From the IMG/VR virus record IMGVR_UViG_3300045988_119718, positions 96,001 through 160,000 of that record: a stretch of 64,000 nucleotides of DNA, one strand, 5' to 3'. The stretch is from a virus. The position numbers and the translations under genes were made by a program. The notes below the pieces were generated by a model. That model did no database searches, was not told where the DNA came from, and was given only the letters and a program-made list of their open reading frames with translations. Numbering within the stretch: the first letter of the stretch is position 1; each line of letters begins with the position of its first letter. Shown here one piece after another: positions 1-48,752 of this stretch.

Positions 1-1008
1 ACTATTAAACAAGTTAAGCATCAAACTATAGTGCTTACTTATAGAAATAAAAAGTACTATTCTGATACTATAGTTGAAAATAATGAAGATTATACTGTAG
101 AATTAATACCAGACCCTGGATATACTGCTACTTCATTAATTATTAATGGTAAAACTATAAATAGCTTAAAGTATACTGGTAAAGCTGCTGAAGATCTAAC
201 TATAACAGCAGTACAATCACAAGCAGGTACAGATTCTAACTATTTAGAATTTATATTTAAAGAATTTGATTCTAGAATAGAAAGATTTAGTAATAGTGAT
301 GGGAAATTATTAGTAGGTACTCTACAAGAGGTTACAACCATTATTAACCCAGATAAAAACATATGTGAAATTACTATTATACAGTCTGCTAATCAGACCA
401 TCCATGTATATATACCATACAAAGGCGGTACTGACCACACATCTTCCTTTACTTGTCCGTTAGGTACAACCTATGAAGTAGAGGTTATAGCTGATAAGGG
501 ATATATAGCTGGTACACCGAATACCAAGGTAGGAACAATTAATAGCAATATGTCTATTGATGCTAGCCCTGCTGTAAAGCCTCAAATATATATAGCTAAA
601 GGTAGTAGTGGTGGATGGTATAATAAAGTAAACGAAACAATGGAGTGGAAGGATAAATCTCATGTAATTAAAGTAGATGAATCTATACCAGGACAAGCTA
701 CAGTTATCTGTGATGGTAATATAACTAATATGAAGTATATGTTCTATGCATGTAACAACCTCACTTCAATAGACTTATCTAACTTTGATACATCTAATGT
801 AACTAACATGGGCATGATGTTCTTTGGCTGTGATAATCTTACTACTATTAAAGGTGTATTCGATATGAAGTCTTGCACAAATTATGCCGGTATGTTTGCG
901 ACATGTACTAAACTTACTAATGCTAAGATTAAAAATCCGCCAAAGGATACTGATTGGTGGAAAAATGCTGGATTTAACTCTACATCTCAGTTCACTATAG
1001 TATCATAA
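1..1008 (+). CDS. Tail-fibre / receptor-binding protein (5' end truncated by the window edge). Contains a beta-sandwich repeat module (IQSANQTIHVY..GGTDHTSSFTC..GTTYEVEVIA..GY.AG) followed by C-terminal BspA-type leucine-rich repeats.
   Basis: The frame is open back to position 1 (TIKQVKHQTIV...). The repeat module is shared with at least 6 other ORFs in the window. The LRR consensus NLTSIDLSNFDTSNVTNM.. is present. The C-terminus ...KIKNPP....QFTIVS matches ORF 44919..45674. Confidence 0.6.
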   Translation, partial: TIKQVKHQTIVLTYRNKKYYSDTIVENNEDYTVELIPDPGYTATSLIINGKTINSLKYTGKAAEDLTITAVQSQAGTDSNYLEFIFKEFDSRIERFSNSDGKLLVGTLQEVTTIINPDKNICEITIIQSANQTIHVYIPYKGGTDHTSSFTCPLGTTYEVEVIADKGYIAGTPNTKVGTINSNMSIDASPAVKPQIYIAKGSSGGWYNKVNETMEWKDKSHVIKVDESIPGQATVICDGNITNMKYMFYACNNLTSIDLSNFDTSNVTNMGMMFFGCDNLTTIKGVFDMKSCTNYAGMFATCTKLTNAKIKNPPKDTDWWKNAGFNSTSQFTIVS

Positions 1009-21850: not shown

Positions 21851-22630
21851 TTAATATTTTATCAATAAATAAACTCCATCATCAGGAATATTTGTATTAG
21901 GATAGTATATAGTAATAGTACCAGCTCCACATACGGTTTTTAATATTTTATAGTTATCTAAATCACAAGCTGCGGCTTTATCGGAAGAAGTAATGTCCTT
22001 ATCATCTGTATATACATAATGTGCTGTCGTACCTTCTATTACCCAATCAGCTTTATCTGTACCTGTTCTAATACTACTTCCGCCGCATAAAAGAATCATT
22101 AATGATTGCTCATCAATAGATGATGATGAACCAGCGTTTTTTAAATCATCTTTTGTAGCTAATTCGCTACCTTTATAAGTGATAGTCTCACCTTCACCCA
22201 TATCCAATAATGTCTTAGTACCACTCTCTGTTATAGAGTTTACCTGTAAACCACCATTCATAATGATTTTAGACTGATTGGTCTGTTCTCCATGAGTGAT
22301 TACGGTTTCATTGTTGACCACAGGATGATTAAAAGTTGTATCAGAGTTTACCTGTATTTCTTTTACGTTAAAATCTAAAGCACCATTGAATTCGGTATGT
22401 CCGTTAAATGTTACTTGACCATCGAACTCTGCTAAACCTTCAGCAAATACATTATTACCATTTAAAGTATTATCACCAATTAAGTTTACTTTCTTGTCTA
22501 ATTCAGCTTTAATTACTTTATTTTGTACAGCATTAAGGCTGGTATCAGATAAAGATTCATCTAATTGTGTTGTTGGAGAGGAGTAAATATTCCCCCCCCC
22601 CACAATAACTCCAGATATTGTTTGTGACAT
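21851..22630 (-). CDS. Tail-fibre-like protein (259 aa) whose N-terminus belongs to the polyG family (MSQTISGVIVGGGN...). It is in frame (ON) as sequenced.
   Basis: A G10 tract sits at codons 10-14. The N-terminal motif is shared with the small paralog family. Confidence 0.5.
   Translation of the reverse strand: MSQTISGVIVGGGNIYSSPTTQLDESLSDTSLNAVQNKVIKAELDKKVNLIGDNTLNGNNVFAEGLAEFDGQVTFNGHTEFNGALDFNVKEIQVNSDTTFNHPVVNNETVITHGEQTNQSKIIMNGGLQVNSITESGTKTLLDMGEGETITYKGSELATKDDLKNAGSSSSIDEQSLMILLCGGSSIRTGTDKADWVIEGTTAHYVYTDDKDITSSDKAAACDLDNYKILKTVCGAGTITIYYPNTNIPDDGVYLLIKY
22592..22601 (-). repeat. Homopolymeric G10 tract (C10 on the plus strand) inside the 5' end of gene 21851..22630.
   Basis: Read directly from the sequence. 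Confidence 0.9.
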
Positions 22631-25295: not shown

Positions 25296-25698
25296 TTAAT
25301 AATCTGTTATTGTAGGTGTTTTTTTGTTAATTTCTGGTGACCATGATATACGATAGGTAAAGCTATTAAATTCTCTAAGCGGTACTCCATGCACCATCCA
25401 ACTCATATTATCATGTGTGCTGCATTGCACGCCAAAAACCATTGTCTGCCCCTGTCCATGAAAAAAACTTTTGGGTTTATGATATGATCCAGGAGTAACC
25501 CCTATATAAACAGGGTCTAAAGTAAAGATGCCACCACTAACATCCATTGTTAGGCTTAATGCAAGTATGTGAACATTAGCTGGGATAACAAAATTAGGTA
25601 AATCACCTTCATAACTCCCAGTAGGTACACTCACGGTAGCAGGACTAGCACTAAACGTCGTCCCCCCCCCCAATTATACCTTTTAATGTTGTAGCCAT
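25296..25698 (-). CDS. PolyG-family small protein (MATTLKGIIGGG|TTFSASPATVSVPTG...SPEINKKTPTITDY); phase-OFF as sequenced (G10).
   Basis: An upstream ATG with an RBS gives MATTLKGIIGGGDDV* at G10. G9 restores the full 134-aa protein. The ORF-track model starts at a TTG immediately 5' of the tract. Confidence 0.5.
25662..25671 (-). repeat. Homopolymeric G10 tract.
   Basis: Read directly from the sequence. Confidence 0.9.
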
Positions 25699-25719: not shown

Positions 25720-26105
25720 TTAATAATCAGTATCGTCTGGTGTGTGAGTATTAATTTCAGGAGAATAATATATAGTTACCCCTTCTATATCATTTTCATC
25801 ATTAACATCCTCAATTTTCCAACTAGTAATTTGATGTATATTATGGGTAAAACAATAAATACCATATACCATAGTATGATGAGGTGGTATATAATCTGTT
25901 TGAAGTCCCCATACATGTGTTGAGCCAGGGGTAACACCCACGTAAAATCCACGTACATAAAGTACCTTTATTCCATTTGGAACTGTAAATCTTTCTGAGC
26001 TATCTGGGCCTATATATATGCTTCCACTCGGTATACTTGCAGTTGCTGGGGTGACACTAATAGTTACCCCCCCCCCCATATAGTTCCTTTTAAAGATTGT
26101 GACAT
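25720..26105 (-). CDS. PolyG-family small protein (MSQSLKGTIWGGG|VTISVTPATASIPSG...SPEINTHTPDDTDY); phase-OFF as sequenced (G11).
   Basis: The RBS-proximal ATG at 26105 reads MSQSLKGTIWGGG* at G11. G12 or G9 restores the frame. The ORF-track model starts at an internal ATG embedded in the tract. Confidence 0.5.
26067..26077 (-). repeat. Homopolymeric G11 tract.
   Basis: Read directly from the sequence. Confidence 0.9.
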
Positions 26106-26544: not shown

Positions 26545-26557
26545 AATAAATCTCCTA

Positions 26558-26734: not shown

Positions 26735-26755
26735 TTTTTATCTCCTTATTATTTT

Positions 26756-27232
26756 CTACTTAGCAATCTTAGAAGCTGATTTCTCAGCTTCTGATTCTAT
26801 TTTTGATCTATTCATAATTACATATTCTTTATCATATTTACTTTGCTGCCATTTATGAACTAATTCATGACAAAGTATTTCTTTTTGTTTATTTATAGAT
26901 AATCCTGATTTATTAAGAAAAATCTTATTAGTATTCCATATTCCACATGCATATGAAGTTCTTACTAATCTATTAGCCATATCTTTAGAAAGTTTATTTT
27001 CTATTAATATTTCTCTATATTCTTTATCTGTATTGGAATAGTATACTTCTAAATCTTCAAATTTATAATTTAAACATGACTCAGTATTTGCAATACACCA
27101 TTCAAAAATAGCTTTATCTTGTGTATTAGCATTTATTAGATTATGAGCACTTATAGATATAAATTGCAAATTTAGTAGTAGAAATACTAATAAGATAATT
27201 CTAATAATTATAAATCTCATTATTCTATCCAA
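26756..27232 (-). CDS. Secreted or membrane-anchored putative zinc metallopeptidase (158 aa) with an HExxH motif.
   Basis: N-terminal hydrophobic signal or anchor. HELVH motif (CHELVHKWQQ). Confidence 0.45.
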   Translation of the reverse strand: MDRIMRFIIIRIILLVFLLLNLQFISISAHNLINANTQDKAIFEWCIANTESCLNYKFEDLEVYYSNTDKEYREILIENKLSKDMANRLVRTSYACGIWNTNKIFLNKSGLSINKQKEILCHELVHKWQQSKYDKEYVIMNRSKIESEAEKSASKIAK

Positions 27233-28506: not shown

Positions 28507-28639
28507 TATTTGTTTCCTTTCTTTTATAAAAAATTAAAAGTTGAAACTTTTATAGTATTGTTATCATTATTGAGTACGCTTATAAAAACAATATAGTAAT
28601 TTTATTTCCTATATTTTTATAGAAAGAGTTGATATTGTA

Positions 28640-29326
28640 ATGAATAAGCGTACCTCTATTTCTGATATTTATTCATCATCGTTAGTCATTAATAGTAAAG
28701 AATTAGACAGAGCTTACAAGAAATTAGATAAAGACCAATTAGATTATTTTAATTCTTTTTCTAATCATATCATCACTTGTGTAAATGCTGCATCTGGTTC
28801 TGGTAAAACGTTTGTAGCTGTGTTAGCAGCATTACAAGCATTTAACCAAGGAGAAGTGAATAAGATTTACTATATTAGAATACCAGATGATAGGTCATTA
28901 AGATTAGGATATCTTCCAGGGTCTTCAGATGATAAACAGTCTATTTATACAACTCCATTCTATAATGCATGTACTAGTTTAGGATTAAGAGAAGAAGATA
29001 TAGATATAGCAAGAGATAATAATGAAATAGTTCTATGTACTGATATAGTACTTAGAGGTACTAATATCTGTAATGCATTTGTTATTATAGATGAAGCACA
29101 AAATGGTAGATTATCTGATTTAAAACTTATATTAACTAGAATATCAGATAACTGTAAAGTAGCATTAATAGGTCACTCAGCTCAGTATGATAACTTTAAA
29201 GGAACTAATGAAAAAGCTTTTGAAAAATATATAGAGCATTTAACTAAGAAATCATGGGCTATAGAATGTAAACTTACTAAAAATTATAGAGGTAAACTTT
29301 CTTCATGGGCTGATGAATTATATTGA
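28640..29326 (+). CDS. phoH: PhoH-like P-loop ATPase.
   Basis: Walker A GSGKTF. Walker B / PhoH signature VIIDEAQN ... LIGHSAQYD. Confidence 0.65.
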   Translation: MNKRTSISDIYSSSLVINSKELDRAYKKLDKDQLDYFNSFSNHIITCVNAASGSGKTFVAVLAALQAFNQGEVNKIYYIRIPDDRSLRLGYLPGSSDDKQSIYTTPFYNACTSLGLREEDIDIARDNNEIVLCTDIVLRGTNICNAFVIIDEAQNGRLSDLKLILTRISDNCKVALIGHSAQYDNFKGTNEKAFEKYIEHLTKKSWAIECKLTKNYRGKLSSWADELY

Positions 29327-29344: not shown

Positions 29345-30418
29345 ATGGATCAAAACTCTACAGATTGGCGTTCACAACAATTCTTTGTTACTAAGAATGG
29401 TAAAAAAGAATTAATACATATAGAAACTGATACTAAAAATATTGTAGACTTCTATACAGGAGTAATAGCAATTATTAATAAATTAAAAGGCATAGCTAAT
29501 GGCTTAGCTACATTGGATGCAAATGGTCATGTACCGCAAGACCAATTAAACAATATTGAACAGCAATTAAAAGATTTAGAGAAAAAACTCACCAATCTTA
29601 TCAATAACAACAATACTAAGCTAAATACAGATTTAGCAAATGCAGTTAAAGAATTAAAAGGCTTAATATCTGCATTAGATGCAAAGTCTGATGGAGCTTA
29701 TGTTAAAAAAGTAGGGGATACAATGACTGGTTCATTAACATCCACTGTACAATCCACTACTTGGGTTAATGGTATGAAAAATGCGGCTTTAAATTGTAAC
29801 TTTAGTTCTTATTCTGCTATAGCTAATTCTCCTTCTAAAAATGGTAGATTTTCTATTTCTTCTTATCCTGACCAAAATAATAATTTCTATATTTCTTATA
29901 TGACGCAGGATAAAATAAATGCTGATACTAATGCTACTGATAAGCAATTAATTTGGAGTGGTGATACTGGTGTATTGACTTGTACTAAAGTAGTCAATTC
30001 AGTATATAACGACTATGCCGAATTATTCCCTAAAGGTGAAGAAACTGAACCAGGGGATTTAATTGTATTAGACTTAGATTCTAAAGAAGAAAAGTATGTT
30101 AAATCTAGTGCTAAAAATACTAGAGTAGTGGGTGTTCATTCAGATGAATATGCTCAACTTATTGGTGGAGATAATGTTTCATTAGAAGAAAATCTTAAAA
30201 ACTATATTCCTGTATCTTTAGCAGGACGTATTAGGGTTAAATTTATTGGTATATCAAAAAAGAATGAATATGTAGTAGCTGATACTCATAATCCTGGTGT
30301 AGCTAGATTATATTATAAGGATTTAAATAAACCAGAAGATATTATTGGAATACTTGTAGAGGAAGATTCTAATACCAATCCAAATGAAATTAGAAGATTA
30401 AAAATAAAACTTAAATAA
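29345..30418 (+). CDS. Tail-fibre-like protein (357 aa) with an N-terminal coiled coil and the conserved C-terminal domain shared with 1850..3838.
   Basis: C-terminus YNDYAELFPKGEETEPGDLIVLDL...HSDEYAQLIGG...EENLKNYIPVSLAGRIRVK. Confidence 0.5.
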   Translation: MDQNSTDWRSQQFFVTKNGKKELIHIETDTKNIVDFYTGVIAIINKLKGIANGLATLDANGHVPQDQLNNIEQQLKDLEKKLTNLINNNNTKLNTDLANAVKELKGLISALDAKSDGAYVKKVGDTMTGSLTSTVQSTTWVNGMKNAALNCNFSSYSAIANSPSKNGRFSISSYPDQNNNFYISYMTQDKINADTNATDKQLIWSGDTGVLTCTKVVNSVYNDYAELFPKGEETEPGDLIVLDLDSKEEKYVKSSAKNTRVVGVHSDEYAQLIGGDNVSLEENLKNYIPVSLAGRIRVKFIGISKKNEYVVADTHNPGVARLYYKDLNKPEDIIGILVEEDSNTNPNEIRRLKIKLK

Positions 30419-30420
30419 AA

Positions 30421-30458
30421 AAAATAAAGGTCTAGGCTATTTAGTCTAGACCTTTACT
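30421..30458. terminator. Bidirectional terminator.
   Basis: Hairpin AAAGGTCTAGGCTATTTAGTCTAGACCTTT between convergent genes. Confidence 0.5.
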
Positions 30459-36651: not shown

Positions 36652-37812
36652 TCATAAAGCTAAATTCTGATTACCTGATAAGAATCTTTTAGAATAGTAA
36701 TCTAAATTAAATTCTCTAGTATCTTTATCTAAATATTCTCTACTAATATACTTATCAAAACATTCTTTTTCAATATCATAGATGACTTTTCTAGATATAC
36801 ATTTATTGTATGAGTTAAATATGTATCTAGTTTCTAATGGGCATTCTGTGCAATATGAAACATGATTACACTGAATACATCTATCAATGTTTTCATTTAA
36901 AAGATTAGTATATAGATTAGTAAAATTAGACATTGATTTAGAATCAAACCCAGTAGAAATATTTCCTAGTACTAAATCATTATTATTATCTAATAATCCA
37001 TCTATTTCTTTTAAAAGTAAACATGGATAAATATCCCCATTAGGCACTACCATAAACATCTTTCCGATATATCTGCATTTATGGTCATAAATAAAATCAG
37101 GGTTTATAAATTTATTATAAATCATATATGTAAGATTATCCAAATCAAAATCATACTGATTATACAGCATATATATTTTATGCAGCTGATGTATAAAGAT
37201 AGTTTTAAACTCTTCAGTATTATAATATTTAGAGTATTCATCATTAAAAATAAAATAGTAAGATAACTTCTTACACCCTTGTTCTAGTGCATATTGAATA
37301 GAGTCAGCTAAATAACAAATATTGTCTTTAGTAACTGCTATAGCTATCATAACTTCATTATTATACTTAGAACAGCCTACTTTATCAACAATAGTAGACA
37401 ACTGTTTATCAGTAAGATGAGTTTGGGCTATTTCAGAAGCATGAATACCATCCCATGATATTTTAACTGATTCAGGAGAAATTATCTTTATTAAATCATT
37501 CATAATAAAGTTGTGATTAGTACCATTAGATACTATACCAATCTTAACTGTTGTATCTTTATATCGCTCAATCTTTTTTAACTCTTTGCATAGATTATAA
37601 AGCTCATTAGGATATATAGTTATCTCTCCCCCTAATAAGTTTATATATAACTTAGGGCCGATATTTAAGGTCTTTAAAAACTCTACCAGCTCTTTGCCTT
37701 TATTGAATACATTGTGCCTAGACCTAGAGTTATTAGTCTCAAAGCAATATTTACAATTCAAATTACAATAGTCATTAAATTTTATCCCTAAGAAATCAAT
37801 TTGCTCATACAT
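36652..37812 (-). CDS. Radical SAM / SPASM-domain enzyme (386 aa), putative peptide maturase number 3.
   Basis: Radical-SAM cluster motif CNLNCKYC (CxxxCxxC). C-terminal SPASM-like cysteines: C..GDIYPC ... CIQCNHVSYCTECP. Confidence 0.7.
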   Translation of the reverse strand: MYEQIDFLGIKFNDYCNLNCKYCFETNNSRSRHNVFNKGKELVEFLKTLNIGPKLYINLLGGEITIYPNELYNLCKELKKIERYKDTTVKIGIVSNGTNHNFIMNDLIKIISPESVKISWDGIHASEIAQTHLTDKQLSTIVDKVGCSKYNNEVMIAIAVTKDNICYLADSIQYALEQGCKKLSYYFIFNDEYSKYYNTEEFKTIFIHQLHKIYMLYNQYDFDLDNLTYMIYNKFINPDFIYDHKCRYIGKMFMVVPNGDIYPCLLLKEIDGLLDNNNDLVLGNISTGFDSKSMSNFTNLYTNLLNENIDRCIQCNHVSYCTECPLETRYIFNSYNKCISRKVIYDIEKECFDKYISREYLDKDTREFNLDYYSKRFLSGNQNLAL

Positions 37813-38992
37813 TTTTCATACCTAATAGCTTAATAAAATTGCTTACTAATTCGGCTTCTTCATCATTTTTCTGTATTGCTTCTATATTATTAATTCTATT
37901 AAAAGTATAATTATCCATCTTAGTAGTGGAGATATCAGTAGATAATGCAAACTTCAAATCTTCTGGTGAAGTATTAATAATCTTACCATTTAAAATTTTT
38001 TCATTATTAATTGCAATAGTAGCATATTTTCTTAACAATACTGCATACTTAATAACTTTAGATCTATCATAATAAGATAATCCTCTAAGAAGAGTCGGCA
38101 TATTGGTAAGACCATCATTGAACAAGTCGATGATCTTGTTCAATAATTTTTTACAAGTTGTAATTCTTTCTGCTCTATTTGTATTACTGATAGAAAATAA
38201 TAAGTACATCAGCATAGTATCACAGAATCTGAGATAACCATAGTTATACTTCTTATATTGATAATCTCCTATTTCACTATATAAGAAATTATCAAGCTTA
38301 TTATACAAATCCTGAAGATCTATTTTAATTCTATTATCTTCTAAAAGTTGATTGATATTATGAATATAGAAGCATACCCAATCACAGAATTGGGAGTTAA
38401 TATTATCTTTATCACTAGAATACTCTAAAGTCTTATTATAATACTTTTTAATAGTATTCATGCATTTGGATGTAATATCTTCTTCTGACATAGAATTTGT
38501 AATAAAGTCTTTAGAGATACTGTCTATAAGAATCTTGTAAGCAATATAGTTATAATAAATAAATTTACTATAGTTTTTAGATTCATGAGATTCAAAATAT
38601 TTAATAAAGGTTTTCATATAAGAGAAATAAACATCTTTTTTATTAGAATCATTAAAATCTATAAATGCAATTAATAATGCTAAATAGTTTTCATCATCTA
38701 ATGCTTTAGTATTATGAATATATTCTTCTCCAATAAAATCTTTACTAATTATTTCAAATTCTTGAAGTAAAATTGGTTCATTTTTTAATGATTCTTCAAT
38801 AGAAGATTTAATATCAGAGTATACTTTCTTATTATCTTCATTTTCTATAAACAAAGAAGAATATTTAATATATTCTTCAAATGTAGTAAAAGAATTATAT
38901 TTATCAGATAGAGCGTTAAGTTTATCTATTACATCAGATACTTTATTCTCTAATATATAATTATAAATTCTTTCTGGTAAAAAATATATCAT
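37805..38992 (-). CDS. Hypothetical protein (395 aa) embedded in the radical-SAM cluster.
   Basis: ORF. Translationally coupled to its neighbours. Confidence 0.4.
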   Translation of the reverse strand: MIYFLPERIYNYILENKVSDVIDKLNALSDKYNSFTTFEEYIKYSSLFIENEDNKKVYSDIKSSIEESLKNEPILLQEFEIISKDFIGEEYIHNTKALDDENYLALLIAFIDFNDSNKKDVYFSYMKTFIKYFESHESKNYSKFIYYNYIAYKILIDSISKDFITNSMSEEDITSKCMNTIKKYYNKTLEYSSDKDNINSQFCDWVCFYIHNINQLLEDNRIKIDLQDLYNKLDNFLYSEIGDYQYKKYNYGYLRFCDTMLMYLLFSISNTNRAERITTCKKLLNKIIDLFNDGLTNMPTLLRGLSYYDRSKVIKYAVLLRKYATIAINNEKILNGKIINTSPEDLKFALSTDISTTKMDNYTFNRINNIEAIQKNDEEAELVSNFIKLLGMKNV

Positions 38993-38993
38993 A

Positions 38994-40046
38994 TTAAACC
39001 TCCATATCTACATTATTAACCTTATATAACCAATTCTTATATCGCATAATTATTTTATAAAGTTCTGCTAATTCTTCATGATTAAGACTTGCTAAATATT
39101 TAGTAATAAGATTATCATAAACTTTCATAAGTTTACATGTTTCTGGTAAATAATTATCTAACCATTTATCACCAAACTTTAGCATTCTTTCATATCTACA
39201 TCCACCATCGCAAAGGTAAAAATATTTACAATTTTCTATCTGACAATCTTTACTGGTACAACGCTTCTGTATTTTATCAAAGTCTTCATATTTCTGTTCA
39301 GTAAATGCGATAGAAGTGCATGATGACATAGTTTTATCTGTAAGATAAGACTGTTCTTTACCTGCTGCGCATGACTGCATTGGTGCTCTATTAATATATG
39401 CCATTATCTTATTAAGATTTTCTGTATATGGATGCTCTAATGTACCTTCAAAAGTACAATAAAGATTCTCTTCTAAATCTTTAAACCATTGATCGTCATG
39501 GTCTTCACCTCTAGCAATACAGTATTGACCATTAATATGAAACTCTTTATCTAATCTATGGAATAACTTATTAAGTCTAGGTATATCTTTTACATTAGCA
39601 TTATTAATTACAGTCTTAATATCAAAGTGGTCTAGTCCTTCAGATATAGCATAATTAATATTATTCAATACTCTATCGGCAATACTTCTACCAGAAGTAT
39701 CTACTCTAGAATCTTTAAATCCATCCCAAGAAATTTGTAATTCTATATGCCATTTCTTTTGGAACTTAATAAACTCTTTCCAATTAGCCATACTAGAAGT
39801 TATAACTTGAAAGTTCATTTGATCGTGATACTTTTCTAAGGTGTATTCCATTAAGTCTAATCTCATTAATGGTTCTCCACCAAAGAATACCACTCTATTT
39901 GGTTTATTTTGCTCTATACACTCATCTATATCTTTTTCTGTAAGACAATCATTATTATACTTGATATAACAATAATGGCATCTATTAGGACATTGATTGG
40001 TTAAAAATAAATATATTTCTTTATACATTAGAATCCACCACCACAT
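38994..40046 (-). CDS. Radical SAM / SPASM-domain enzyme, putative peptide maturase number 2. The start is probably MYKEIYLF at 40031.
   Basis: CPNRCHYC (CxxxCxxC), FFGGEPL, and a C-terminal Cys cluster: CAAG...C...CTSKDCQIENCKYFYLCDGGC. Confidence 0.7.
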   Translation of the reverse strand: MWWWILMYKEIYLFLTNQCPNRCHYCYIKYNNDCLTEKDIDECIEQNKPNRVVFFGGEPLMRLDLMEYTLEKYHDQMNFQVITSSMANWKEFIKFQKKWHIELQISWDGFKDSRVDTSGRSIADRVLNNINYAISEGLDHFDIKTVINNANVKDIPRLNKLFHRLDKEFHINGQYCIARGEDHDDQWFKDLEENLYCTFEGTLEHPYTENLNKIMAYINRAPMQSCAAGKEQSYLTDKTMSSCTSIAFTEQKYEDFDKIQKRCTSKDCQIENCKYFYLCDGGCRYERMLKFGDKWLDNYLPETCKLMKVYDNLITKYLASLNHEELAELYKIIMRYKNWLYKVNNVDMEV

Positions 40047-40519
40047 TTCTTATCATGACATGTACCACCATGGCATGATTGGCAAGATATTTGGCAAGTA
40101 GACTGACAAGATGCTTGACATACAAGTTTGCATGGGCCTGCCCAATAATCATCAGACTTAGAATTCATTTGCTGTAGTAAAAGTTTTGCTATATTATAAA
40201 TAATACCTATATCATTAGCTGTAATTATTTTTTGTTTTTGAACTTTATTGTTGATATCTTTTAATTGATTATAGTTTGCTGAAGTAGTTCTAGAAAGCTG
40301 TGTAATAGTTTTACTATAACCATTACCACCTTTTCTACTTATTTCGTTATCAGTAACAGCATTAATAGAATCTAATTCTGTAATATTTGTAAGCAAACAA
40401 TTTATCGTATTATTAAAGAAATCATTTGTAATGAAATGATCTTTAGCAGGAGAATCTGGTAAATAATATTTTACAGATTGTCTAATTACTTCTGTAGCCA
40501 TTAGAAACCACCCCCACAT
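40028..40519 (-). CDS. Cys-rich precursor protein B (about 157 aa from MATEV...) with a SCIFF/ranthipeptide-like C-terminal core, LVCQASCQSTCQISCQSCHGGTCHDKKCGGGF.
   Basis: Seven Cys with C-x3-C spacing at the extreme C-terminus. The core is identical to that of precursor A. It lies immediately upstream of a radical-SAM/SPASM gene. Confidence 0.65.
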   Translation of the reverse strand: MWGWFLMATEVIRQSVKYYLPDSPAKDHFITNDFFNNTINCLLTNITELDSINAVTDNEISRKGGNGYSKTITQLSRTTSANYNQLKDINNKVQKQKIITANDIGIIYNIAKLLLQQMNSKSDDYWAGPCKLVCQASCQSTCQISCQSCHGGTCHDKKCGGGF

Positions 40520-40911
40520 TTCTTATCATGACATGTACCACCATGGCATGATTGGCAAGATATTTGGCAAGTAGACTGACAAGATGCTTGACAGACTAAT
40601 CCACATGTACCATTGTTATTCCAATATTTCCAAGAATGTTCTTGCAATACATTGGAAATAGATTTACATAAATTATATATAGCTTTAGCATCATCTGCTT
40701 TAATAACATCACCTTGACTGATTAAGCTAATAATAGAATGAACAGTTTTAGGAACACCAATTCTAGAATATTCTATAATCTGTTTCTTTCTATATTCGTC
40801 TTTCTCTAATTCATCTATATTAGATAACATAGTCTCAATCATGTTATCATAAATAGTCTTACTAGAATTGACTAAATTATAGTGTATACCATTATTTACT
40901 ATCTTTTCCAT
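40501..40911 (-). CDS. Cys-rich precursor protein A (136 aa) with the identical C-terminal core, LVCQASCQSTCQISCQSCHGGTCHDKKCGGGF.
   Basis: Same as precursor B. The N-terminal roughly 100 aa are unrelated to precursor B. Confidence 0.65.
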   Translation of the reverse strand: MEKIVNNGIHYNLVNSSKTIYDNMIETMLSNIDELEKDEYRKKQIIEYSRIGVPKTVHSIISLISQGDVIKADDAKAIYNLCKSISNVLQEHSWKYWNNNGTCGLVCQASCQSTCQISCQSCHGGTCHDKKCGGGF

Positions 40912-42322
40912 TATCTTCTACACCACCTTTATTATTCAATGAATATAAAATCATAGTCATAAGAATTTCAGATTTCTTTCTAAAGTATTCTTCAAATGTA
41001 GGGAATACATTATCAGAACCCAAATTATTAATCATTTCTTTAAGATGAATCAATCTAAGCTTTAATGCAAAAGTATTAGATAAATCCGCAGTATCCATAA
41101 TCATATCGATATACTTCTTAATCTCTAAATTAGTCTTAAGAATATTTAAGTATCTACTTCTAATATTAGTAGCATTAAGAATCTCAGCTTGCTTAATAAT
41201 AATTACATCGGTCATAATCTTATGAAGATCACAATAAGATTGTAAGACTTTATTCTCATCACCATTTTCTCTAAGGTTTTCTTCAGGGCAACCATTCTTA
41301 CAATTTCCTTTAGCTTTACAAGTTTCACATTCTTCTTTTTGATATACTGCTTGTTTTTCTTTTCTATCAGTATGGACTTTGGTTTCATCTACGTCAGTAT
41401 AGATATTACCAATCTTCTGTACTAATTTAATTTCATCCTTAGAAGTTGGTAATTGATGGCATGGATAGATATCCCCATTATAATCAATAGTACACCATTT
41501 ATTCAATCCAATAGGGCAAAGTAAATCATCAGATACTTCTGGTTCCATAACCTGTCTCATAAAGTCATCTATATTCTTAATAGCTATATTTCTCTTAGAA
41601 CCTTCTTCATTAAGTTTATCGACATACATATCCACTAATTCAATATAGTTTTCTTTATAGTCATTCAGTTGTTCTTCTGTCCACTCTACATCAGTTACTG
41701 GCATAGGACAAATAGAATCTATTCCTAAAGTATTTACTAAGTAATCTACACCATCATACATATACTTTGCATCTTCTGGTAAGATAGTCATTCTAGCTTC
41801 AATAAATACTTTCAATCCATTAGTAATAAGAATCTTTAAGTTCTTTACTACTTGATTCCATGAATTAGAACGGTTCTTATCATGAACATGTTTAATACCA
41901 TCAATAGATACTAATAAACCAATATTATTATCATCTACGTATTGAATGAAGTCTTTTGGCAAGAATGATAAGTTAGTAGTCATACCATAATCTACTAATC
42001 TATGATGCTTATTATTATCATCTATAACTGCTTTAATACATTCCCAATTCAATAATGGCTCTCCACCAAAGAAATTGACTTGGAACCTTCTATTAAAACC
42101 AGATAAATCATTATATGCCAGTCTCATAGCATCTACTGCTACTTCTGGCTTCATATATTTTTTATTTTTATCTTTTTCAAAACAATAGATACATTTAAAA
42201 TTACAATCATTAGTAATATCCAATGTGATAGAATCACAATCATAGACTTCTCTAAATGGTTTCATAATTATTCCTCCTAAAAAATAAATTATTATAATGT
42301 AAAAAAGATTATTAGTAGCCAT
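40892..42322 (-). CDS. Radical SAM / SPASM-domain enzyme, putative peptide maturase number 1. The start is probably MKPFREVY.
   Basis: CNFKCIYC (CxxxCxxC), FFGGEPLL, and a SPASM cluster: CPIGLNKWCTIDYNGDIYPCHQL...CETCKAKGNCKNGCP. Confidence 0.7.
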   Translation of the reverse strand: MATNNLFYIIIIYFLGGIIMKPFREVYDCDSITLDITNDCNFKCIYCFEKDKNKKYMKPEVAVDAMRLAYNDLSGFNRRFQVNFFGGEPLLNWECIKAVIDDNNKHHRLVDYGMTTNLSFLPKDFIQYVDDNNIGLLVSIDGIKHVHDKNRSNSWNQVVKNLKILITNGLKVFIEARMTILPEDAKYMYDGVDYLVNTLGIDSICPMPVTDVEWTEEQLNDYKENYIELVDMYVDKLNEEGSKRNIAIKNIDDFMRQVMEPEVSDDLLCPIGLNKWCTIDYNGDIYPCHQLPTSKDEIKLVQKIGNIYTDVDETKVHTDRKEKQAVYQKEECETCKAKGNCKNGCPEENLRENGDENKVLQSYCDLHKIMTDVIIIKQAEILNATNIRSRYLNILKTNLEIKKYIDMIMDTADLSNTFALKLRLIHLKEMINNLGSDNVFPTFEEYFRKKSEILMTMILYSLNNKGGVEDNGKDSK

Positions 42323-42962: not shown

Positions 42963-43297
42963 TCTTTTCCCTTTCTTTTTGTTAATAGATTATATAAAGC
43001 ATTTTTCATAGCAGAATAAGAAGAATAAGTTTGTGTATAGATAGCATCTTTGTTTTCAACTGTAATAGTACTAATTTTAGACTTTTTATTGTAAGTTTTA
43101 TATTCAGTATTATTTACTTTTTTGAATAATGCATTAGGATAATTAAAGAATACATCACATGGATTCGTATTAATAATAAATTGATTTAGTGATAAAACGA
43201 TGTCATTTAGTGTAAGTTCATTATACTTAGATAGTATAAACTTAACCCAAACATAGTTATCATTATCATTCTTTACTTCAATATAGAAATATTTCAT
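42950..43297 (-). CDS. Hypothetical protein (115 aa).
   Basis: ORF only. Confidence 0.35.
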   Translation of the reverse strand: MKYFYIEVKNDNDNYVWVKFILSKYNELTLNDIVLSLNQFIINTNPCDVFFNYPNALFKKVNNTEYKTYNKKSKISTITVENKDAIYTQTYSSYSAMKNALYNLLTKRKGKEWIE

Positions 43298-43337
43298 TAT
43301 TATTTATACCCCTAATCTATACACAAACTAAAATAAA

Positions 43338-44444
43338 TTATCTCATATTATTCATATCTAAAATATAGTTAATCACTGGAGCAATAGCAGCAGCTTTAGC
43401 TTCTGCTTTCTCTTCTTCTTCTTTTTTAACGTATTCTTCTGTTTTCCAGTTCTGAGGAATTGTAGTATCTTTATAAACTTCGTTTACAAATTTACCACCA
43501 TTGATAGTAATAGAAGCTGTATCTTTATTGGTTACACCAGAAAGTTCAATATCGAAAGTACCATTCTCAATCGTAATCTTAGCTGATTCAGTCCATTTAG
43601 TACTTGTTCCTGGAAGAGTTTCAGGAGCTGAGGAAGATTTATCATATTCTACAGCACCTACTACTTTACCAGTGAAGTCCTTACCAAAAGTAATTACTGG
43701 AGCAGCATTATAATACTTCTTTAATAATCCATAATAGCAGTCAAATGCTACTCTACGGAATCCATCAGTATTAGGTGCATTGATAATTGTATTACCTTTG
43801 CAAGTTAATCCACCATAGTTATTGGATACTGCATATGCACACTGAGTTCCTTTAGAAATATCTACAGTTACATCTTCTAATACTAATTCAGAATAGTTCT
43901 GAATAAACATTTTGCAATTTGCAAAGTTAGTAGTAAGAGTACCATTCTTAAAAGTAACTTTACAACCTTCCATAAGTCTAAATGCAATAGTCTGATATTT
44001 AACACTAGCACCTACTAATGGAAGTTTAGAAACATTTACGGTATGACCATTTAAATCAAATGTAATGTATCTATCTTGAGTATGGTCATTTTCTACACCA
44101 ACTTGAGTACCACAAGTATCAATATCTTCTAAAAGAGTAATTGTAGTTTCAGTCTTAGGTTTAGCTGCATTTACTGCTTCTTGGAAAGTAGCATATTTTA
44201 CACCATTAGATTCAATTACATATTTTACAGCTTCAGTAGCACTAAATTCAACAGTAGTATCTGATTCTGCTACAGTATAAGTCTCTTTATTTAAAGTACC
44301 AGCTTTATAGCCTTCACTAGCTACAATAGAAGCAATGAGTTCTTTACCAGTTTCTACAGTATCACCATCATGATAAGTTTTAGAATCTAAATCTGAAACT
44401 GTAATAACCTGATTAGCAGATTGAATAATTTTTAAAGTTGCCAT
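43338..44444 (-). CDS. Tail-fibre-like protein (368 aa) with an N-terminal repeat module.
   Basis: LKIIQSANQVITVSDLDSKTYHDGDTVETGKELIASIVASEGYKAGTLN. The C-terminus is acidic and Ala-rich. Confidence 0.45.
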   Translation of the reverse strand: MATLKIIQSANQVITVSDLDSKTYHDGDTVETGKELIASIVASEGYKAGTLNKETYTVAESDTTVEFSATEAVKYVIESNGVKYATFQEAVNAAKPKTETTITLLEDIDTCGTQVGVENDHTQDRYITFDLNGHTVNVSKLPLVGASVKYQTIAFRLMEGCKVTFKNGTLTTNFANCKMFIQNYSELVLEDVTVDISKGTQCAYAVSNNYGGLTCKGNTIINAPNTDGFRRVAFDCYYGLLKKYYNAAPVITFGKDFTGKVVGAVEYDKSSSAPETLPGTSTKWTESAKITIENGTFDIELSGVTNKDTASITINGGKFVNEVYKDTTIPQNWKTEEYVKKEEEEKAEAKAAAIAPVINYILDMNNMR

Positions 44445-44464
44445 AATTTATAAATCCTTTCTTT

Positions 44465-44893
44465 TTAATAATCGGTTAAAGTAGGAGTTTTATTATTTAT
44501 TTCAGGAGAATATTTTATATAAAATCTGTCTATATAAGATTCACCACCACGAACACCAACGTACACCCTAATAGAGTATCGCTTATTCGGAGTTACACCA
44601 ATATATCCTAGAAATGAAATCGTCTCGCCATAATCACCACCACGGTACCATTGTTTGTTATTACTAAATACAGTCATACAAACTGGGTAATCCTCCTCGT
44701 GAGACGAACTAGCACTTGCATATACTTCAATCACATGTATACCATTAGGAATTGTGATAGTTCTAGTAATATCATCATTATAAGTATTTTGTTCATTTAC
44801 CAAATACCCTGTTGGTATGCTTACGGTTGCTGGGCTAGCCGTGAATGTTAGCCCCCCCCCAATTATACCTTTCATTGTTGTAGCCATATACAA
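44465..44893 (-). CDS. PolyG-family small protein (142 aa, MYMATTMKGIIGGGLTFTASPATVSIPTG...YSPEINNKTPTLTDY); phase-ON as sequenced (G9).
   Basis: Intact ORF with the family N- and C-terminal motifs. Confidence 0.55.
   Translation of the reverse strand: MYMATTMKGIIGGGLTFTASPATVSIPTGYLVNEQNTYNDDITRTITIPNGIHVIEVYASASSSHEEDYPVCMTVFSNNKQWYRGGDYGETISFLGYIGVTPNKRYSIRVYVGVRGGESYIDRFYIKYSPEINNKTPTLTDY
44852..44860 (-). repeat. Homopolymeric G9 tract.
   Basis: Read directly from the sequence. Confidence 0.9.
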
Positions 44894-44918
44894 CTACCTT
44901 CTTTCTTTTTAATCGTAT

Positions 44919-45674
44919 TTATGATACTATAGTGTATTGTGATGCAGATAATCCAGCACCATCGAATCCTGCTGGTGGATTCTTAATCTTAACATTTCTA
45001 AGTTTATGAGAATAGTTAAACATTTCATTCCAATGCTTGCATGATTTCATATCAATTACACCTTTAATGGTAGTAAGATTATAGCATTTATAGAACATCA
45101 AGACCATATCAGTTACTTTAGAAGTATCAAAATTAGATATGTTCAATGTGGTAAGATTATCACAGTTAGAGAACATAGAGGCCATACTTTCTACATTAGA
45201 AGTATCGAAGTTGGATAAGTCTAACGATGTAAGATTACGACAATCCCAAAACATACCTTCCATAGTATACACATTAGAAGTATCAAAGCTAGATACATCT
45301 AATGAAATAAGTTTAGAGCAGTTAGAGAACATAAATTCCATATCTATTGCATTAGAAGTATCGAAATTAGATACGTTTATTGAAGTGAGTTTAGGGTGAC
45401 CATAGGCATTTTTAAACATACCTTCCATAGTATATACTTTAGAAGTACTAAAATTAGATAAGTCTAATGAAGTAAGATTATCAGTGCAGTGACCAAACAT
45501 ATAGCTCATACTCATTACAAAACCATCACATGTAACTGTAGCTTGACCTGGGACTGATGTATCTATTTTATCCACACAGGATTTATCATCCCAATTATCA
45601 TTATACCATGGACTAGAACCTTTAGCTATAAAAATTTGATCTTTGAAGGCTGCATAGCTAACAGTAATAGTCAT
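44919..45674 (-). CDS. BspA-type leucine-rich-repeat receptor-binding module (251 aa). As sequenced it is a separate ORF lacking an N-terminal anchor domain.
   Basis: Tandem LRRs (LTSLDLSNFDTSNV..M..MF). Collinear with the C-terminal half of ORF 1..1008. There is no Shine-Dalgarno site other than the G-tract itself. Confidence 0.55.
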   Translation of the reverse strand: MTITVSYAAFKDQIFIAKGSSPWYNDNWDDKSCVDKIDTSVPGQATVTCDGFVMSMSYMFGHCTDNLTSLDLSNFSTSKVYTMEGMFKNAYGHPKLTSINVSNFDTSNAIDMEFMFSNCSKLISLDVSSFDTSNVYTMEGMFWDCRNLTSLDLSNFDTSNVESMASMFSNCDNLTTLNISNFDTSKVTDMVLMFYKCYNLTTIKGVIDMKSCKHWNEMFNYSHKLRNVKIKNPPAGFDGAGLSASQYTIVS

Positions 45675-45685
45675 ATCACTATTAA

Positions 45686-46708
45686 TTACCCCCCCCCACT
45701 AACGTTCAATGCTCCTGGTTTATACCCACTATCAGCTATAACTTCAGCTTCATATGTAGTTCCCCTTGGACAAGTAAAGGTAGAAGTATGATCGGTTCCT
45801 CCATTCTTTTGAGGTGTATAAACGTGAATAGTCTGGTTAGCAGACTGAACAATAGTTACTGTAGCATTAGCTACTGTTGCAGCTTTAGCACTAATAATCA
45901 TATTGCTATTAAATGTACCACCCTTGGTATTTGGTGTACCTGCTATATAATTATTAGCAGCTATAACTTCTACTTCATAAGTAGTACCTACAGAGCAGGT
46001 GAATGATGAAGTGTGGTCAGTACCACCAGATTTTCTAGGTGTATATACATGGATAGTCTGATTATCACTTTGAACTATAGTTATTTTAGCATAGGATATA
46101 GCAGGGTTAGCATTAATAGACATATCACTATTAATTGTACCATTCTCATTAACATTTAATGACCCTGCTGTATAACCATTTTCAGCTATAACTTCAGCTT
46201 CATATGTAGTTCCCCTTGGACAAGTAAATGTAGAGGTATGATCTGTTCCACCAGACTTCTTAGGAGTATACACATGAATAGTTTGATTAGCAGATTGGGT
46301 AATAGTTACAGTAGCATTAGATTTTGTAGCAGAAGTAGCATTGATAGTTTTATTTTTAGTAAATGTACCACTTCTGCTAATATTTAGTGTTCCTGCCTTA
46401 TAACTATTTTCAGCTATAACTTCAGCTTCATAAGTAGTTCCTGCTAGACAGGTAAAGGTAGAAGTATAATCTATACCACCAATCTTTTTCGGTACATATA
46501 CATGAATAGTTTGATTATCTGACTGATTAATAGTAATTGTAATATTCTTTTTTTCATTATGAGTTTTCTTATAAAGGTCATCTATTAGATCTTGTAATTT
46601 CTTCCAAGTAGGGTCATCTTTAGAGATTCTTTTTAGAAGAATATTTTGAAGAGAAGCATCTAAATCTTCTAATCTTATTCTTCTAATTTCCTTTTTGTTA
46701 TCATTCAT
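45686..46708 (-). CDS. Protein with four tandem ~68-aa repeat modules (340 aa). It ends ...LNVSGGG* directly in a G9 tract.
   Basis: Four near-identical repeats: QSxNQTIHVYTPxKxGGTDHTSTFTC.xGTTYEAEVIAxxGYxAG. Confidence 0.55.
   Translation of the reverse strand: MNDNKKEIRRIRLEDLDASLQNILLKRISKDDPTWKKLQDLIDDLYKKTHNEKKNITITINQSDNQTIHVYVPKKIGGIDYTSTFTCLAGTTYEAEVIAENSYKAGTLNISRSGTFTKNKTINATSATKSNATVTITQSANQTIHVYTPKKSGGTDHTSTFTCPRGTTYEAEVIAENGYTAGSLNVNENGTINSDMSINANPAISYAKITIVQSDNQTIHVYTPRKSGGTDHTSSFTCSVGTTYEVEVIAANNYIAGTPNTKGGTFNSNMIISAKAATVANATVTIVQSANQTIHVYTPQKNGGTDHTSTFTCPRGTTYEAEVIADSGYKPGALNVSGGG
45689..45697 (-). repeat. Homopolymeric G9 tract at the junction of ORFs 45686..46708 and 44919..45674.
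   Basis: Read directly from the sequence. A +1 or -2 shift fuses the two ORFs. Confidence 0.9.
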
Positions 46709-46719
46709 AATATCACCTA

Positions 46720-47742
46720 TTATGAAACTCTATACCAAGCTGCTAATACTGCACCATATGGATTATTTGGTAATGGAGTAGATTTACAATTTGGTGATAA
46801 AGTTGAAGAGATAGTATGTCTATGAGCACCATCAGTAGATGTATTAGGTAAAACATCATCCTTGTCAGATTTTCCGCAGCCTAAATTTTTATTACTACTG
46901 TCATACACCCCCCATTTGCATCTATCAGGCCAATGCTCACCAAATACGGTTCCATGATGATGATCGCCGGTTGTATTAGTTGAACTACCGTTATGACTAT
47001 GCGGAGGCAAATTAGCCTCTGTAAACTTTAATGTGCTACTACCAGTCTTAGTAGTTATATCTGAAGTAGAATTCTTAATATTAACTTCCTCTACACTAGG
47101 ACTACCAATCTTTACATATGCATCACTAATTCTTACCCAATGTGTTCCTGGATATTCTGTACTAGGATTTACATTATAAGCATAGAATATAACTCTGCCT
47201 ACAGCTGGTACACCACTTACATCATCACTAGTCATTACTCTCTTAAATTTGGTATTATTTATATTACCATTACTAGCTCGAATGTATAATTTTCCATCTG
47301 GTTGAGAGATAAATAATTGTGTAGAATAATTTGTGTCTTTATCATAAGGCATATTTATTAATTGACCAGAACTAGCAGGTTGATTAGAAATAGTAGGTCT
47401 ATTGTAATTTGAAATATACATGCCTTGACTATTCCAATCAGCATCACTTGTTCCAGGATTATAGTTATCTTCTAATTTATGGAATGCTTCCCATACTTCA
47501 GTTTTCTTAACAAATTGATCAGTTATATTACCTAAATTATCTGCAATAAAATTTAGCTTTTTTACTAATTCATCATAACTATCTTTAGTTACTGTATTCT
47601 TAAATAGCTCTTGTAATGATGGAGCTAATTCTTCAAAGGTGATCTTATTTTCATTATCAACTTCAGCCATTAAAAAACCTCCAATCTTATTGATTCTAAT
47701 AGGTTTACGCCTATAGGTTACTAGTATGTTAATGTGCTCCAT
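46720..47742 (-). CDS. Tail-fibre protein with a phage tail-collar-type C-terminal domain and His-rich (HxH) motifs.
   Basis: VIFYAYNVNPSTEYPGTHWVRISDAYVKIG (tail-collar-like), LPPHSHNG...GDHHHG...GAHRHT. Confidence 0.5.
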   Translation of the reverse strand: MEHINILVTYRRKPIRINKIGGFLMAEVDNENKITFEELAPSLQELFKNTVTKDSYDELVKKLNFIADNLGNITDQFVKKTEVWEAFHKLEDNYNPGTSDADWNSQGMYISNYNRPTISNQPASSGQLINMPYDKDTNYSTQLFISQPDGKLYIRASNGNINNTKFKRVMTSDDVSGVPAVGRVIFYAYNVNPSTEYPGTHWVRISDAYVKIGSPSVEEVNIKNSTSDITTKTGSSTLKFTEANLPPHSHNGSSTNTTGDHHHGTVFGEHWPDRCKWGVYDSSNKNLGCGKSDKDDVLPNTSTDGAHRHTISSTLSPNCKSTPLPNNPYGAVLAAWYRVS

Positions 47743-47795
47743 TTTGCTTCGACATTACATTAAATATTATAAATACAAAATGGGGTGTTAAAAAA

Positions 47796-48752
47796 ATGAA
47801 TAAAGATAGTAAAAAATTTCATCTTTTATTAGTTCTGATTCCTATTTTTTGCTTTATTATAATTTCAGATATATTTGTATCTGATATAAGAGCTATAAAA
47901 CAAGATACATCAGAAAATATACAGACACTAGAAGAAAAGAAAACTGAATCTATCCATTATATAGTTGATAATAGAATTAGACAAGCCAGATTGCAAAATG
48001 CTTATATAGAAAGTGCTTTTAAATCTTATATAGCAGATTATGATACATCTCAATTACAAAAAGAAATGAACTCTGATGTATTGGATAATAAAATTATAAA
48101 TATACTTTCTAATATAATCATTTATGATACAAAAATAACAAGTATTTTTGAAACACATTATTCGGATCATATCTTGTTTATTAGTAATAAGAATGGTATA
48201 ATTAATATATGCAATTTATCTTCTAATAATCCAGAGATAATGTTTACTAATTGGGATGATTATATTGCTAAGAAGAATAATACCCAACTTACTTCTTCTG
48301 CTATAGATAAGCTTATTAATAAAGAAGAATCTGTTTTAGTATGGGAATCTAGTATAGCTACTAAAAATAATATACTCAATACAGAGTATACTACTTCTTC
48401 TGAAGAAACTATAGATAAGATTATACAGACTGATAATAGTTTTGAATATAGATATTATAATATTCTTGTACCTACTTATGTAAATATAAATAACCAAGAT
48501 GATACTTATGATTTCATAATAGTAAGAGAAATAAACTTATATAAAACTTTAGAACCACTTAGCTATAATATAAATAAGTATGATACGATAATAGAAGATT
48601 ATAAACATGAAATGAGTAACTTGCTATACATAACTATTCTTTTCTCTATTTCAATTACCATCTCGTTGTCTATCAGTATAATCATTGGGGTTCTTAAAAC
48701 CAATAATTATATAAAATATAAATTTAAGTTTAAGAAAGATGGTGATAAATAA
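47796..48752 (+). CDS. Membrane-anchored hypothetical protein (318 aa).
   Basis: N-terminal TM (LLLVLIPIFCFIIISDIFV) and a C-terminal TM. Confidence 0.4.
   Translation: MNKDSKKFHLLLVLIPIFCFIIISDIFVSDIRAIKQDTSENIQTLEEKKTESIHYIVDNRIRQARLQNAYIESAFKSYIADYDTSQLQKEMNSDVLDNKIINILSNIIIYDTKITSIFETHYSDHILFISNKNGIINICNLSSNNPEIMFTNWDDYIAKKNNTQLTSSAIDKLINKEESVLVWESSIATKNNILNTEYTTSSEETIDKIIQTDNSFEYRYYNILVPTYVNINNQDDTYDFIIVREINLYKTLEPLSYNINKYDTIIEDYKHEMSNLLYITILFSISITISLSISIIIGVLKTNNYIKYKFKFKKDGDK

Follow-up and report, generated by a model that had tools for sequence, protein, structure and literature searches.

A poly-G tract at the stalk-tip junction of a putative tail fibre as a probable contingency locus in a human gut jumbo phage

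The DNA analyzed here is a 64,000-nucleotide stretch of a virus record (IMG/VR IMGVR_UViG_3300045988_119718, positions 96,001 to 160,000; hereafter the window), whose source is an AR9/PBS1-like jumbo phage of ~253 kb from human gut metagenomes. On the minus strand, a run of nine guanines (G9), referred to as tract 7, closes the open reading frame (ORF) of a putative tail-fibre stalk at the point where a leucine-rich repeat (LRR) tip module continues in another frame. Tract 7 probably acts as a hypermutable contingency tract, switching the stalk between a tip-less and an LRR-tipped form, within a multi-tract 'phasome' of alternative tips. According to this proposal, the stalk would be attached to the baseplate and composed of four immunoglobulin-like (Ig-like) modules ancestrally continuous with a C-terminal DUF285/BspA-type LRR tip, and the run would encode a Gly-rich loop within the last stalk module. 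Slipped-strand mispairing during phage DNA replication may alter the run by +/-1: G7 or G10 would yield a stalk-LRR protein of 595/596 amino acids (aa), and with G8, G9, G11 or G12 the stalk would end 0-2 codons past the run and the LRR tip, having no start of its own, would not be made. The window has at least five free-standing tip genes in which the same device appears to operate at codons 10-12, so that the phage population would carry a heritable, reversible mixture of tip combinations, a form of host-range bet-hedging.

Reading frames and architecture of the stalk-tip junction

The features of the junction and its paralogue are as follows.

45689..45697, minus strand: G9 tract 7, in the fourth Ig-like module of the stalk, with strand E before it and strands F/G after it
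45686..46708, minus strand: fibre stalk ('anchor') in its out-of-frame form, 340 aa, with an N-terminal helical segment and four beta-sandwich modules of ~75 aa
44919..45689, minus strand: C-terminal LRR tip module, read only at G7/G10, comprising VINSDMTITVS, QIFIAKGSS and then the DUF285/BspA-type LRR
1..1008, plus strand: paralogous stalk-LRR protein in one chain (...KVGTINSNMSIDASPAVKPQIYIAKGSS...LRR) with the junction KVG, its 5' end cut by the window

The stalk ORF terminates AGT GGG GGG GGG TAA, its UAA adjoining the run, and a second minus-strand ORF (44919..45674, 251 aa) begins in a different frame at ATG 45674, ~12 nt past the stalk stop. A reading of the sequence alone had located the run at this junction and proposed that adding one guanine, or removing two, would fuse the stalk to the LRR module. 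The coordinates and frames agree with it: G10 or G7 gives an uninterrupted frame of 596 or 595 aa, respectively, and at G8, G9, G11 or G12 a stop lies 0-2 codons beyond the run. The fusion sequence had been written with four glycines, which required correction, as G10 gives three and reads ...GALNVSGGG-VINSDMTITVSYAAFKDQIFIAKGSSPWY... (the post-tract letters are also given as ...NVSGGG-VINSDMTITVSY). The peptide spanning the stalk-LRR junction in the fused product would be NVSGGGVINSDMTITVSYAAFK.

In the fused frame, the gap between the two ORFs encodes VINSDMTITVS, which is homologous to the inter-module linkers TINSDMSINA and TFNSNMIISA of the same protein and to TINSNMSIDA of ORF 1..1008. 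The stalk modules follow the pattern TVTIVQSANQTIHVYTP..GGTDHTS.FTC..GTTYEAEVIA..GY..G.LNV, and the exact 340-aa stalk protein is present on six contigs. Judged from these alignments, ATG 45674 would be the Met of an inter-module linker and not a start. No usable Shine-Dalgarno (SD) sequence precedes it, as the sequence-only reading had already observed, and in the neighbouring cassette genes AGGAG/GAAGG lies 7-11 nt upstream of every start. The position of this Met is occupied by K, I, R or E in most jumbo-clade orthologues; independent initiation is therefore not a conserved feature.

The tip had been described as a BspA-LRR module, and a match to PF13306 (BspA-type LRR_5; 6.3e-8, 33 bits, cut-off 27.7) agrees with this; the best Pfam match is nevertheless to PF03382 (DUF285; 1.8e-35, 121.7 bits, cut-off 25). 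Homologues of the tip are named 'BspA family leucine-rich repeat surface protein' by NCBI. The single-chain architecture earlier recognized in ORF 1..1008 is present as stalk, linker and LRR, and its stalk-LRR junction carries no G run, making it a fixed fused form.

An AlphaFold2 (AF2) model of the natural fused homologue P0001, with a predicted local distance difference test (pLDDT) score of 85.7, comprises a helical N-terminal segment, four seven-strand modules and the LRR. The tract lies after strand E of module 4, and residues 338-341 and 345-349 form strands (pLDDT 83-92) equivalent to the last two strands that close each preceding module. A fold search with the whole fused homologue returned generic tandem Ig-like pilins and adhesins alone and was uninformative on function. 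Scanning of 43200-48000 for promoters and terminators gave results indistinguishable from shuffled sequences. No Rfam family matched 44000-48000 on either strand at E <= 1, and the plus-strand ORFs 45139..45399, 45636..45791 and 45788..46006 have no supported Pfam family; the feature is therefore a minus-strand coding feature.

Junction states among relatives and within the strain

Among relatives with 70-90% identity, this junction takes one of three forms: fused (G7, G10 or an interrupted run), truncated (G8, G9, G11 or G12) or joined to a different tip. A search with the fused protein recovered the fused homologues P0001 (595 aa, 86% identical, junction SGRG), P0002-4 (SGGG), P0006 (SGG) and P0007/8, and the motif NVSG[GRV]GVIN[SG]D reads directly into LRR tips in P0001, P0002-4, P0006, P0214, P0224 and P0225. 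Truncated stalks end in SGGG*, SGGGN*, SGGGGN* and SGGGG*, exactly as predicted for G9, G8, G11 and G12. In the third class (P0010, 11, 13, 15, 20 and 27), the same stalk is followed by a small SPEIN...TDY domain homologous to the free cassettes of the window. Fused and truncated members coexist inside single clusters of at least 90% identity.

At the nucleotide level, homologous tracts were found in L003-L006 and L011-L037. L014 has G7 and is in frame; L011 is also in frame through an interrupted junction, GGGAGGGGGG; L012/13 carry G8AGG and are out of frame, with the LRR intact in the other frame. In phages of 43-50% guanine-cytosine (GC) content, a Dialister isolate genome and a Fusicatenibacter metagenome-assembled genome, a one-module stalk has poly-G at the homologous point, with the medium-GC junction pattern LNV[NS]x-G7/8-[VRI]IN[SG]DMTFSA. 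Counted over distinct contigs, about 10 have the in-frame and about 15 the out-of-frame arrangement, and every one retains an intact downstream ORF, so that both frame classes of a contingency locus are represented with their downstream coding sequence preserved. The internal module-module junctions never contain a run and read AAT GAG AAT GGT or AAG GGT GGT. In a Megasphaera cerevisiae prophage, the stalk closes at the homologous point by a hard stop (...TLSVN*).

The postulated toggle between truncated and fused forms is borne out insofar as both occur naturally in relatives. The description of the truncated form as 'fibre-less' may be wrong, because its end coincides with the hard-stop end of stalk genes that precede free tips. 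Recombination or deletion between the stalk G run and a cassette G run was set aside: the predicted ...NVSGGG-LTFTAS... protein was not found. The stalk-small-domain fusions retain the VINGDK linker.

Polymorphism within the strain was assessed between consensus assemblies. In assemblies that match the window at 99.92-100% identity (0-11 mismatches in 2.3-18.5 kb), indels are confined to the poly-G tracts, as is characteristic of contingency loci in near-identical genomes. An assembly from a different sample (L007), 99.94% identical over 18.5 kb with 11 mismatches, has a single gap, G8 vs G9 at tract 7. Two contigs of 99.8% identity (L009, L010) carry G9 at tract 7 and G10 at tract 6, and both terminate at tract 6. 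Across window positions 21.8-28.7 kb, L040-L044 (99.92-100%, 0-3 mismatches) have indels in tracts 1-4 only, with lengths of G10/G11 at tract 4, G9/G10/G11 at tract 3, G8/G9 at tract 2 and G10/G11 at tract 1 when compared with the window, and the G6 and C6 runs in the same loci are invariant. Replication slippage may underlie these differences, and the presumed reversibility and rate of the switch would go with it.

Several further observations concern these assemblies. L040 differs from window 19385-28752 by three 1-nt deletions (poly-G tracts 2, 3 and 4) and by no mismatch in 9.4 kb, although its label names the same ENA contig as that of L008, a 100% match to the window. The window seems to derive from a sister version or assembly. 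The short contigs L009, L010 and L043 each have an end exactly at a poly-G tract, suggesting that assembly broke there through tract heterogeneity or poor read-through, and the 3' end of the public contig L043 is Illumina adapter sequence (AGATCGGAAGAGCGT).

The silent LRR module of the window is maintained by purifying selection, because its comparison with that of the in-frame L011 over 256 codons contains no indels or stops and gives a ratio of nonsynonymous to synonymous substitution rates (dN/dS) of 0.28 (dS = 0.24, dN = 0.068).

Poly-G tracts, tip cassettes and genomic context

Tract 7 is one of seven tracts, the other six of which the sequence-only reading had missed. The window has 30% GC, and its plus strand contains C runs of 5 (three), 6 (one), 7 (one), 9 (three), 10 (two) and 11 nt (one), with no G run longer than 6. 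Six runs of at least 9 were observed vs 0.0065 expected under a first-order Markov model, and GGG makes up 8% of Gly codons. All seven poly-G runs (7-11 nt) lie on the coding strand of minus-strand stalk or tail-fibre tip genes, so that homopolymers of at least 7 nt are over-represented in coding sequence, as in contingency loci. Tracts 2-6 occupy codons 10-12 of small paralogous genes encoding MATTMKGII-GGG-LTFTASPATVSIPTG...YSPEINxxTPxxTDY. In the window, tracts 1 and 6 are in frame and the remaining five out of frame. The genes concerned, together with a second stalk gene and the gene upstream of the tract 7 stalk, are listed below.

21851..22630, minus strand: 259-aa fibre-like gene with G10 tract 1 (22592-22601, codons 10-13), in frame here; G11 and out of frame in L041
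22925..23356, minus strand: tip cassette 2 with a G9 tract (23322-23330), out of frame; G8 in L040
23386..24750, minus strand: second stalk protein, 454 aa, lacking a G run, closed by a hard stop (...GYLPGDLSVK*) at the homologous point and with a tip cassette directly next
25296..25698, minus strand: tip cassette 3 with a G10 tract (25662-25671), out of frame; in frame at G9
25720..26105, minus strand: tip cassette 4 with a G11 tract (26067-26077), out of frame; in frame at G9/G12; G10 in L040 and L042
26124..26544, minus strand: tip cassette 5 with a G7 tract (26511-26517), out of frame; would be in frame at G6/G9
44465..44887, minus strand: tip cassette 6, free-standing, 140 aa, MATTMKGII-GGG-LTFTASPATVSIPTGY...YSPEINNKTPTLTDY, with its own SD and in frame here
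44852..44860, minus strand: G9 tract 6, in cassette 6 at codons 10-12; two contigs of 99.8% identity have an out-of-frame G10
46720..47742, minus strand: gene with a T4 Gp10 C-terminal (baseplate) domain (PF21939, 28.3 bits, cut-off 27; PHROG tail protein, 3.3e-16)

Tract 3 is G9 in L040 and L044 and has 11 G's in L041 (G10 plus an adjacent A>G change). In cassette 2 the frame is broken a second time at ACCCCCTCCCAAATG (about 23240-23254), a stretch that is TPPPNVK in the intact orthologue P0207; the cassette is probably a decayed copy, or alternatively ACCCCCTCCCAAATG is a second (poly-C) slippery site. The cassettes have near-identical 5' flanks, ...GATTATTAA-AAAGAAAGAAGGTAGTTGTAT-ATGGCTACAAC...GGTATAATT-Gn (window 44888-44912, 25699-25724 and 26106-26125), and near-identical 3' flanks, TCTCCTGAAATAAATAA..ACTCC...GATTATTAA, with 97% identity between cassettes 6 and 3 across 62 nt. 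Such conserved boundaries could promote exchange by recombination. Many database proteins of the cassette family (P0122, P0126-P0129, P0148 and others) start at MGGG... or further downstream. The MGGG... starts are gene-caller artefacts of out-of-frame tracts, arising from a TTG start inside ATTGGGG; public annotations of such tips are therefore systematically wrong.

The 454-aa stalk and its adjoining cassette form a natural 'split' version of the same junction, and a stalk with a hard stop followed by a free tip occurs also in L028, L017 and L039. In L028 (IMG/VR UViG_3300045988_127829, 3319-3464), a jumbo relative, the 454-aa fibre homologue closes with DLSVK*, and the next gene is a free-standing LRR tip, MATTLKGIIGVGMITISATPAVKLKPQVYIAKGSSPW, with a MATTLKGII leader and a G run degenerated to GGGGTTGGG.

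These split forms bear on what the out-of-frame state of tract 7 means, which may be tip exchange and not 'off'. The truncated stalk ends at the hard-stop point of the window's 454-aa fibre (...DLSVK*), of its L028 homologue and of the Megasphaera prophage stalk (...TLSVN*), each of which has a free-standing tip gene next. The N-terminal leader of the free tips, MATTxKG-II-GGG-LTFTASPAT, is among the most conserved parts of the cassette family, is disordered when predicted alone by AF2, and shares homology with the pair of beta-strands (G-VI-NSD-KTINATSAT) missing from the truncated stalk. On account of this homology, free tips may dock onto tip-less stalks and supply the missing strands in trans, a possibility that we put forward only tentatively. 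If true, tract 7 would choose between a covalent LRR tip and non-covalent tumour necrosis factor-like (TNF-like) or LRR tips that are themselves poly-G gated, a combinatorial, slippage-driven tip swapping conserved across phages as different as Dialister prophages and gut jumbo phages.

The window matches a 252,690-bp ENA metagenome contig, and the large terminase of the phage is 32-39% identical to those of Bacillus AR9/PBS1-like and Staphylococcus S6-like jumbo phages. Its genes include a phiKZ-type RNA polymerase subunit, a family B DNA polymerase and several radical S-adenosylmethionine (SAM) genes. A simple identification as a known phage was excluded, since megablast of 44400-47800 against 50,697 phage records returned no match. 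All jumbo relatives keep the gene order Gp10C-like, stalk, tips, 368-aa, 115-aa, amidase and radical SAM, and the product of 46720..47742 is the probable attachment partner of the stalk. Prophage-like regions with the same stalk module occur in Dialister sp. i34-0019-2H8 (L015), where the tract is an in-frame G7 and the module precedes tip genes and genes for a holin-like membrane protein and a lysin, and in Megasphaera cerevisiae DSM 20462 (L017). No lead to the host emerged other than this sharing of modules; given that Dialister and Megasphaera genomes contain related modules, Campylobacter is an improbable host.

Elsewhere in the window, three or four radical-SAM/SPASM-type genes (36652-42322) lie directly downstream of the fibre/lysis genes and are kept in all jumbo relatives. 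A direct repeat of ~111 bp with 93.7% identity (40010-40120 and 40484-40593) occurs in small genes just downstream of the radical-SAM gene 40892..42322. An intergenic motif at 11264-11287, 11684-11705 and 30417-30439 consists of an A7-9 run followed by a GAGAGGTCTAAACCT-like sequence; these motifs are likely to be intrinsic terminators, because the minus strand has a short hairpin and then a T run.

Alternative explanations, known systems and implications

Several observations weigh against a fast-switching contingency tract. In this strain, tract 7 is out of frame in 8/8 contigs (G9 in six, G8 in two), and no G10 or G7 allele of this exact phage was found among them. In the medium-GC clade, seven contigs sharing no more than ~97% identity have the same out-of-frame G8, which looks more stable than a very fast switch predicts; among the loci retrieved there are no near-identical medium-GC pairs whose tract lengths differ. 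Some of the +/-1 differences could stem in part from errors of Illumina sequencing or of assemblers at long G runs. The putative receptor-binding role of the stalk and tip proteins rests on homology and position, and their incorporation into virions and effect on adsorption and host range are likewise presumed.

The uniformly out-of-frame state of the strain invites two other accounts. One is RNA-level recoding, in which the genome would stay out of frame and a fixed fraction of stalk-LRR protein would arise by transcriptional slippage or -1 ribosomal frameshifting. The G9 allele contains a slippery G GGG GGG heptamer, a formal match only, which abuts the 0-frame UAA with the fused frame at -1; out-of-frame consensus sequences are common and sometimes shared by diverged relatives; and a hairpin is predicted 5 nt downstream of the tract. 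This hairpin was dropped as a frameshift stimulator: its z-score against shuffles is -1.39, it reflects self-complementary INS...TIN codons and it is absent in the medium-GC clade, so that the downstream structure is neither significant nor conserved. Nor is the frame relation conserved, as the shift required varies among relatives (-1 for G9, +1 for G8 and G11) and many, being in frame, need none; a single conserved recoding signal is lacking. Length differences are, moreover, seen directly in DNA, and recoding is unlikely to be the explanation. The other account is decay: the G runs would be functionless mutational debris, and the LRR tip a pseudogene fragment that lost its activity recently. 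This account draws as well on the second frameshift and decayed look of cassette 2. It is difficult to reconcile with the dN/dS of the LRR module and its 256 codons free of stops and indels, with the intact downstream ORFs of all ~15 out-of-frame relatives, and with the retention of the run at one specific junction across phages of 30-50% GC although GGG is a rare codon, and we give such decay very little credence.

It has also to be asked whether stalk and tip are two ordinary genes, the LRR being translated alone from ATG 45674, for example by termination-reinitiation ~12 nt past the stalk stop, with the tract irrelevant. That distance in G9, the medium-GC out-of-frame stop likewise lying a few nt before the conserved Met of INSDMTF, and the occurrence of free-standing tip genes in this phage family would all suit such an arrangement. 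This start differs, however, from that of every free-standing cassette in having no SD; most jumbo-clade orthologues replace the Met, as described above; the ~12-nt 'spacer' encodes a homologue of the inter-module linker; and the conserved MATTxKG leader of genuine free tips is absent from this ORF. Two independent genes are thus highly improbable. A sequencing or assembly artefact, with a true G10 and an intact gene misread as G9 by short-read homopolymer error, would accord with the error-prone nature of long G runs, with the breakage of three contigs at tracts and with the A>G change adjacent to two tracts, which resembles homopolymer-edge noise. Yet G9 is repeated in six contigs from different samples and assemblers, those contigs have tract 6, likewise a G9 and 840 nt away, in frame, and assemblies from ENA, Logan and JGI, like the isolate Dialister genome, have tracts at matching positions, making an artefact extremely unlikely.

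A slippage-driven contingency tract, the reading that we prefer, has precedents. To our knowledge, poly-G phase variation of phage receptor-binding proteins has been demonstrated only in Campylobacter phages. Sorensen et al., in Cell Rep in 2021, reportedly described poly-G tracts in the receptor-binding-protein genes of Fletchervirus. Variation of poly-G tracts in these genes of Campylobacter Fletchervirus phages is also summarized in PMC10579305. The present phage resembles Fletchervirus in having several poly-G runs in its tail-fibre/receptor-binding genes, with length setting the frame and diversity of host recognition as the proposed outcome. It differs in lacking any sequence relationship (the megablast search was empty and the terminase is AR9/PBS1- and S6-like), which places it outside Fletchervirus/Eucampyvirinae, and in the position of the tracts: tract 7 lies at an internal stalk-tip junction, and the others gate an array of interchangeable tip cassettes. 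Because tract 7 is inside the protein at this junction, the 'off' product is a complete stalk and not a short peptide.

Contingency loci have been described in coliphages T2/T4, and repeats of at least 6 bases are under-represented in coliphage tail-fibre genes (bioRxiv 10.1101/2025.10.21.683753). As in these phages and in bacterial contingency loci (Campylobacter, Neisseria, Haemophilus), the present system combines a homopolymer within an ORF, +/-1 polymorphism in near-identical genomes and frame switching. Unlike in coliphages, the repeats are concentrated in tail-fibre genes, are longer (7-11) and occupy a defined structural position across distant phages. Programmed frameshifting in lambda G/GT and T7 10A/10B, which uses a fixed slippery site and gives a fixed ratio, likewise produces a short and a C-terminally extended form of a structural protein from one locus; here, by contrast, the frame relation varies among relatives and the DNA length itself varies. 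Tail-fibre tropism is switched by the invertible segments of Mu Gin and P1 Cin and by the diversity-generating retroelement of Bordetella BPP-1. With these the present locus shares alternative C-terminal receptor-binding ends on a constant fibre base with spare cassettes adjacent, but no invertase, inverted repeats or reverse transcriptase was seen in the genes examined around the locus, and switching here would be by homopolymer slippage.

Full-text literature searches returned no description of this system in gut jumbo phages or for DUF285 tips. The principle of poly-G variation in receptor-binding proteins was already known; what is new is the phage lineage, the probable host and the architecture. 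Gene callers split such fibres and mis-start the cassettes ('MGGG...'), leaving tip repertoires mis-annotated in public catalogues. A natural allele series is present, comprising G7-G12, interrupted 'locked' forms, and fixed fused and fixed split forms. The same principle appears to have arisen independently in an unrelated ~253-kb human gut jumbo phage and in Negativicutes prophages and, if this is confirmed, slippage-based host-range bet-hedging would be a wider phage strategy than thought.

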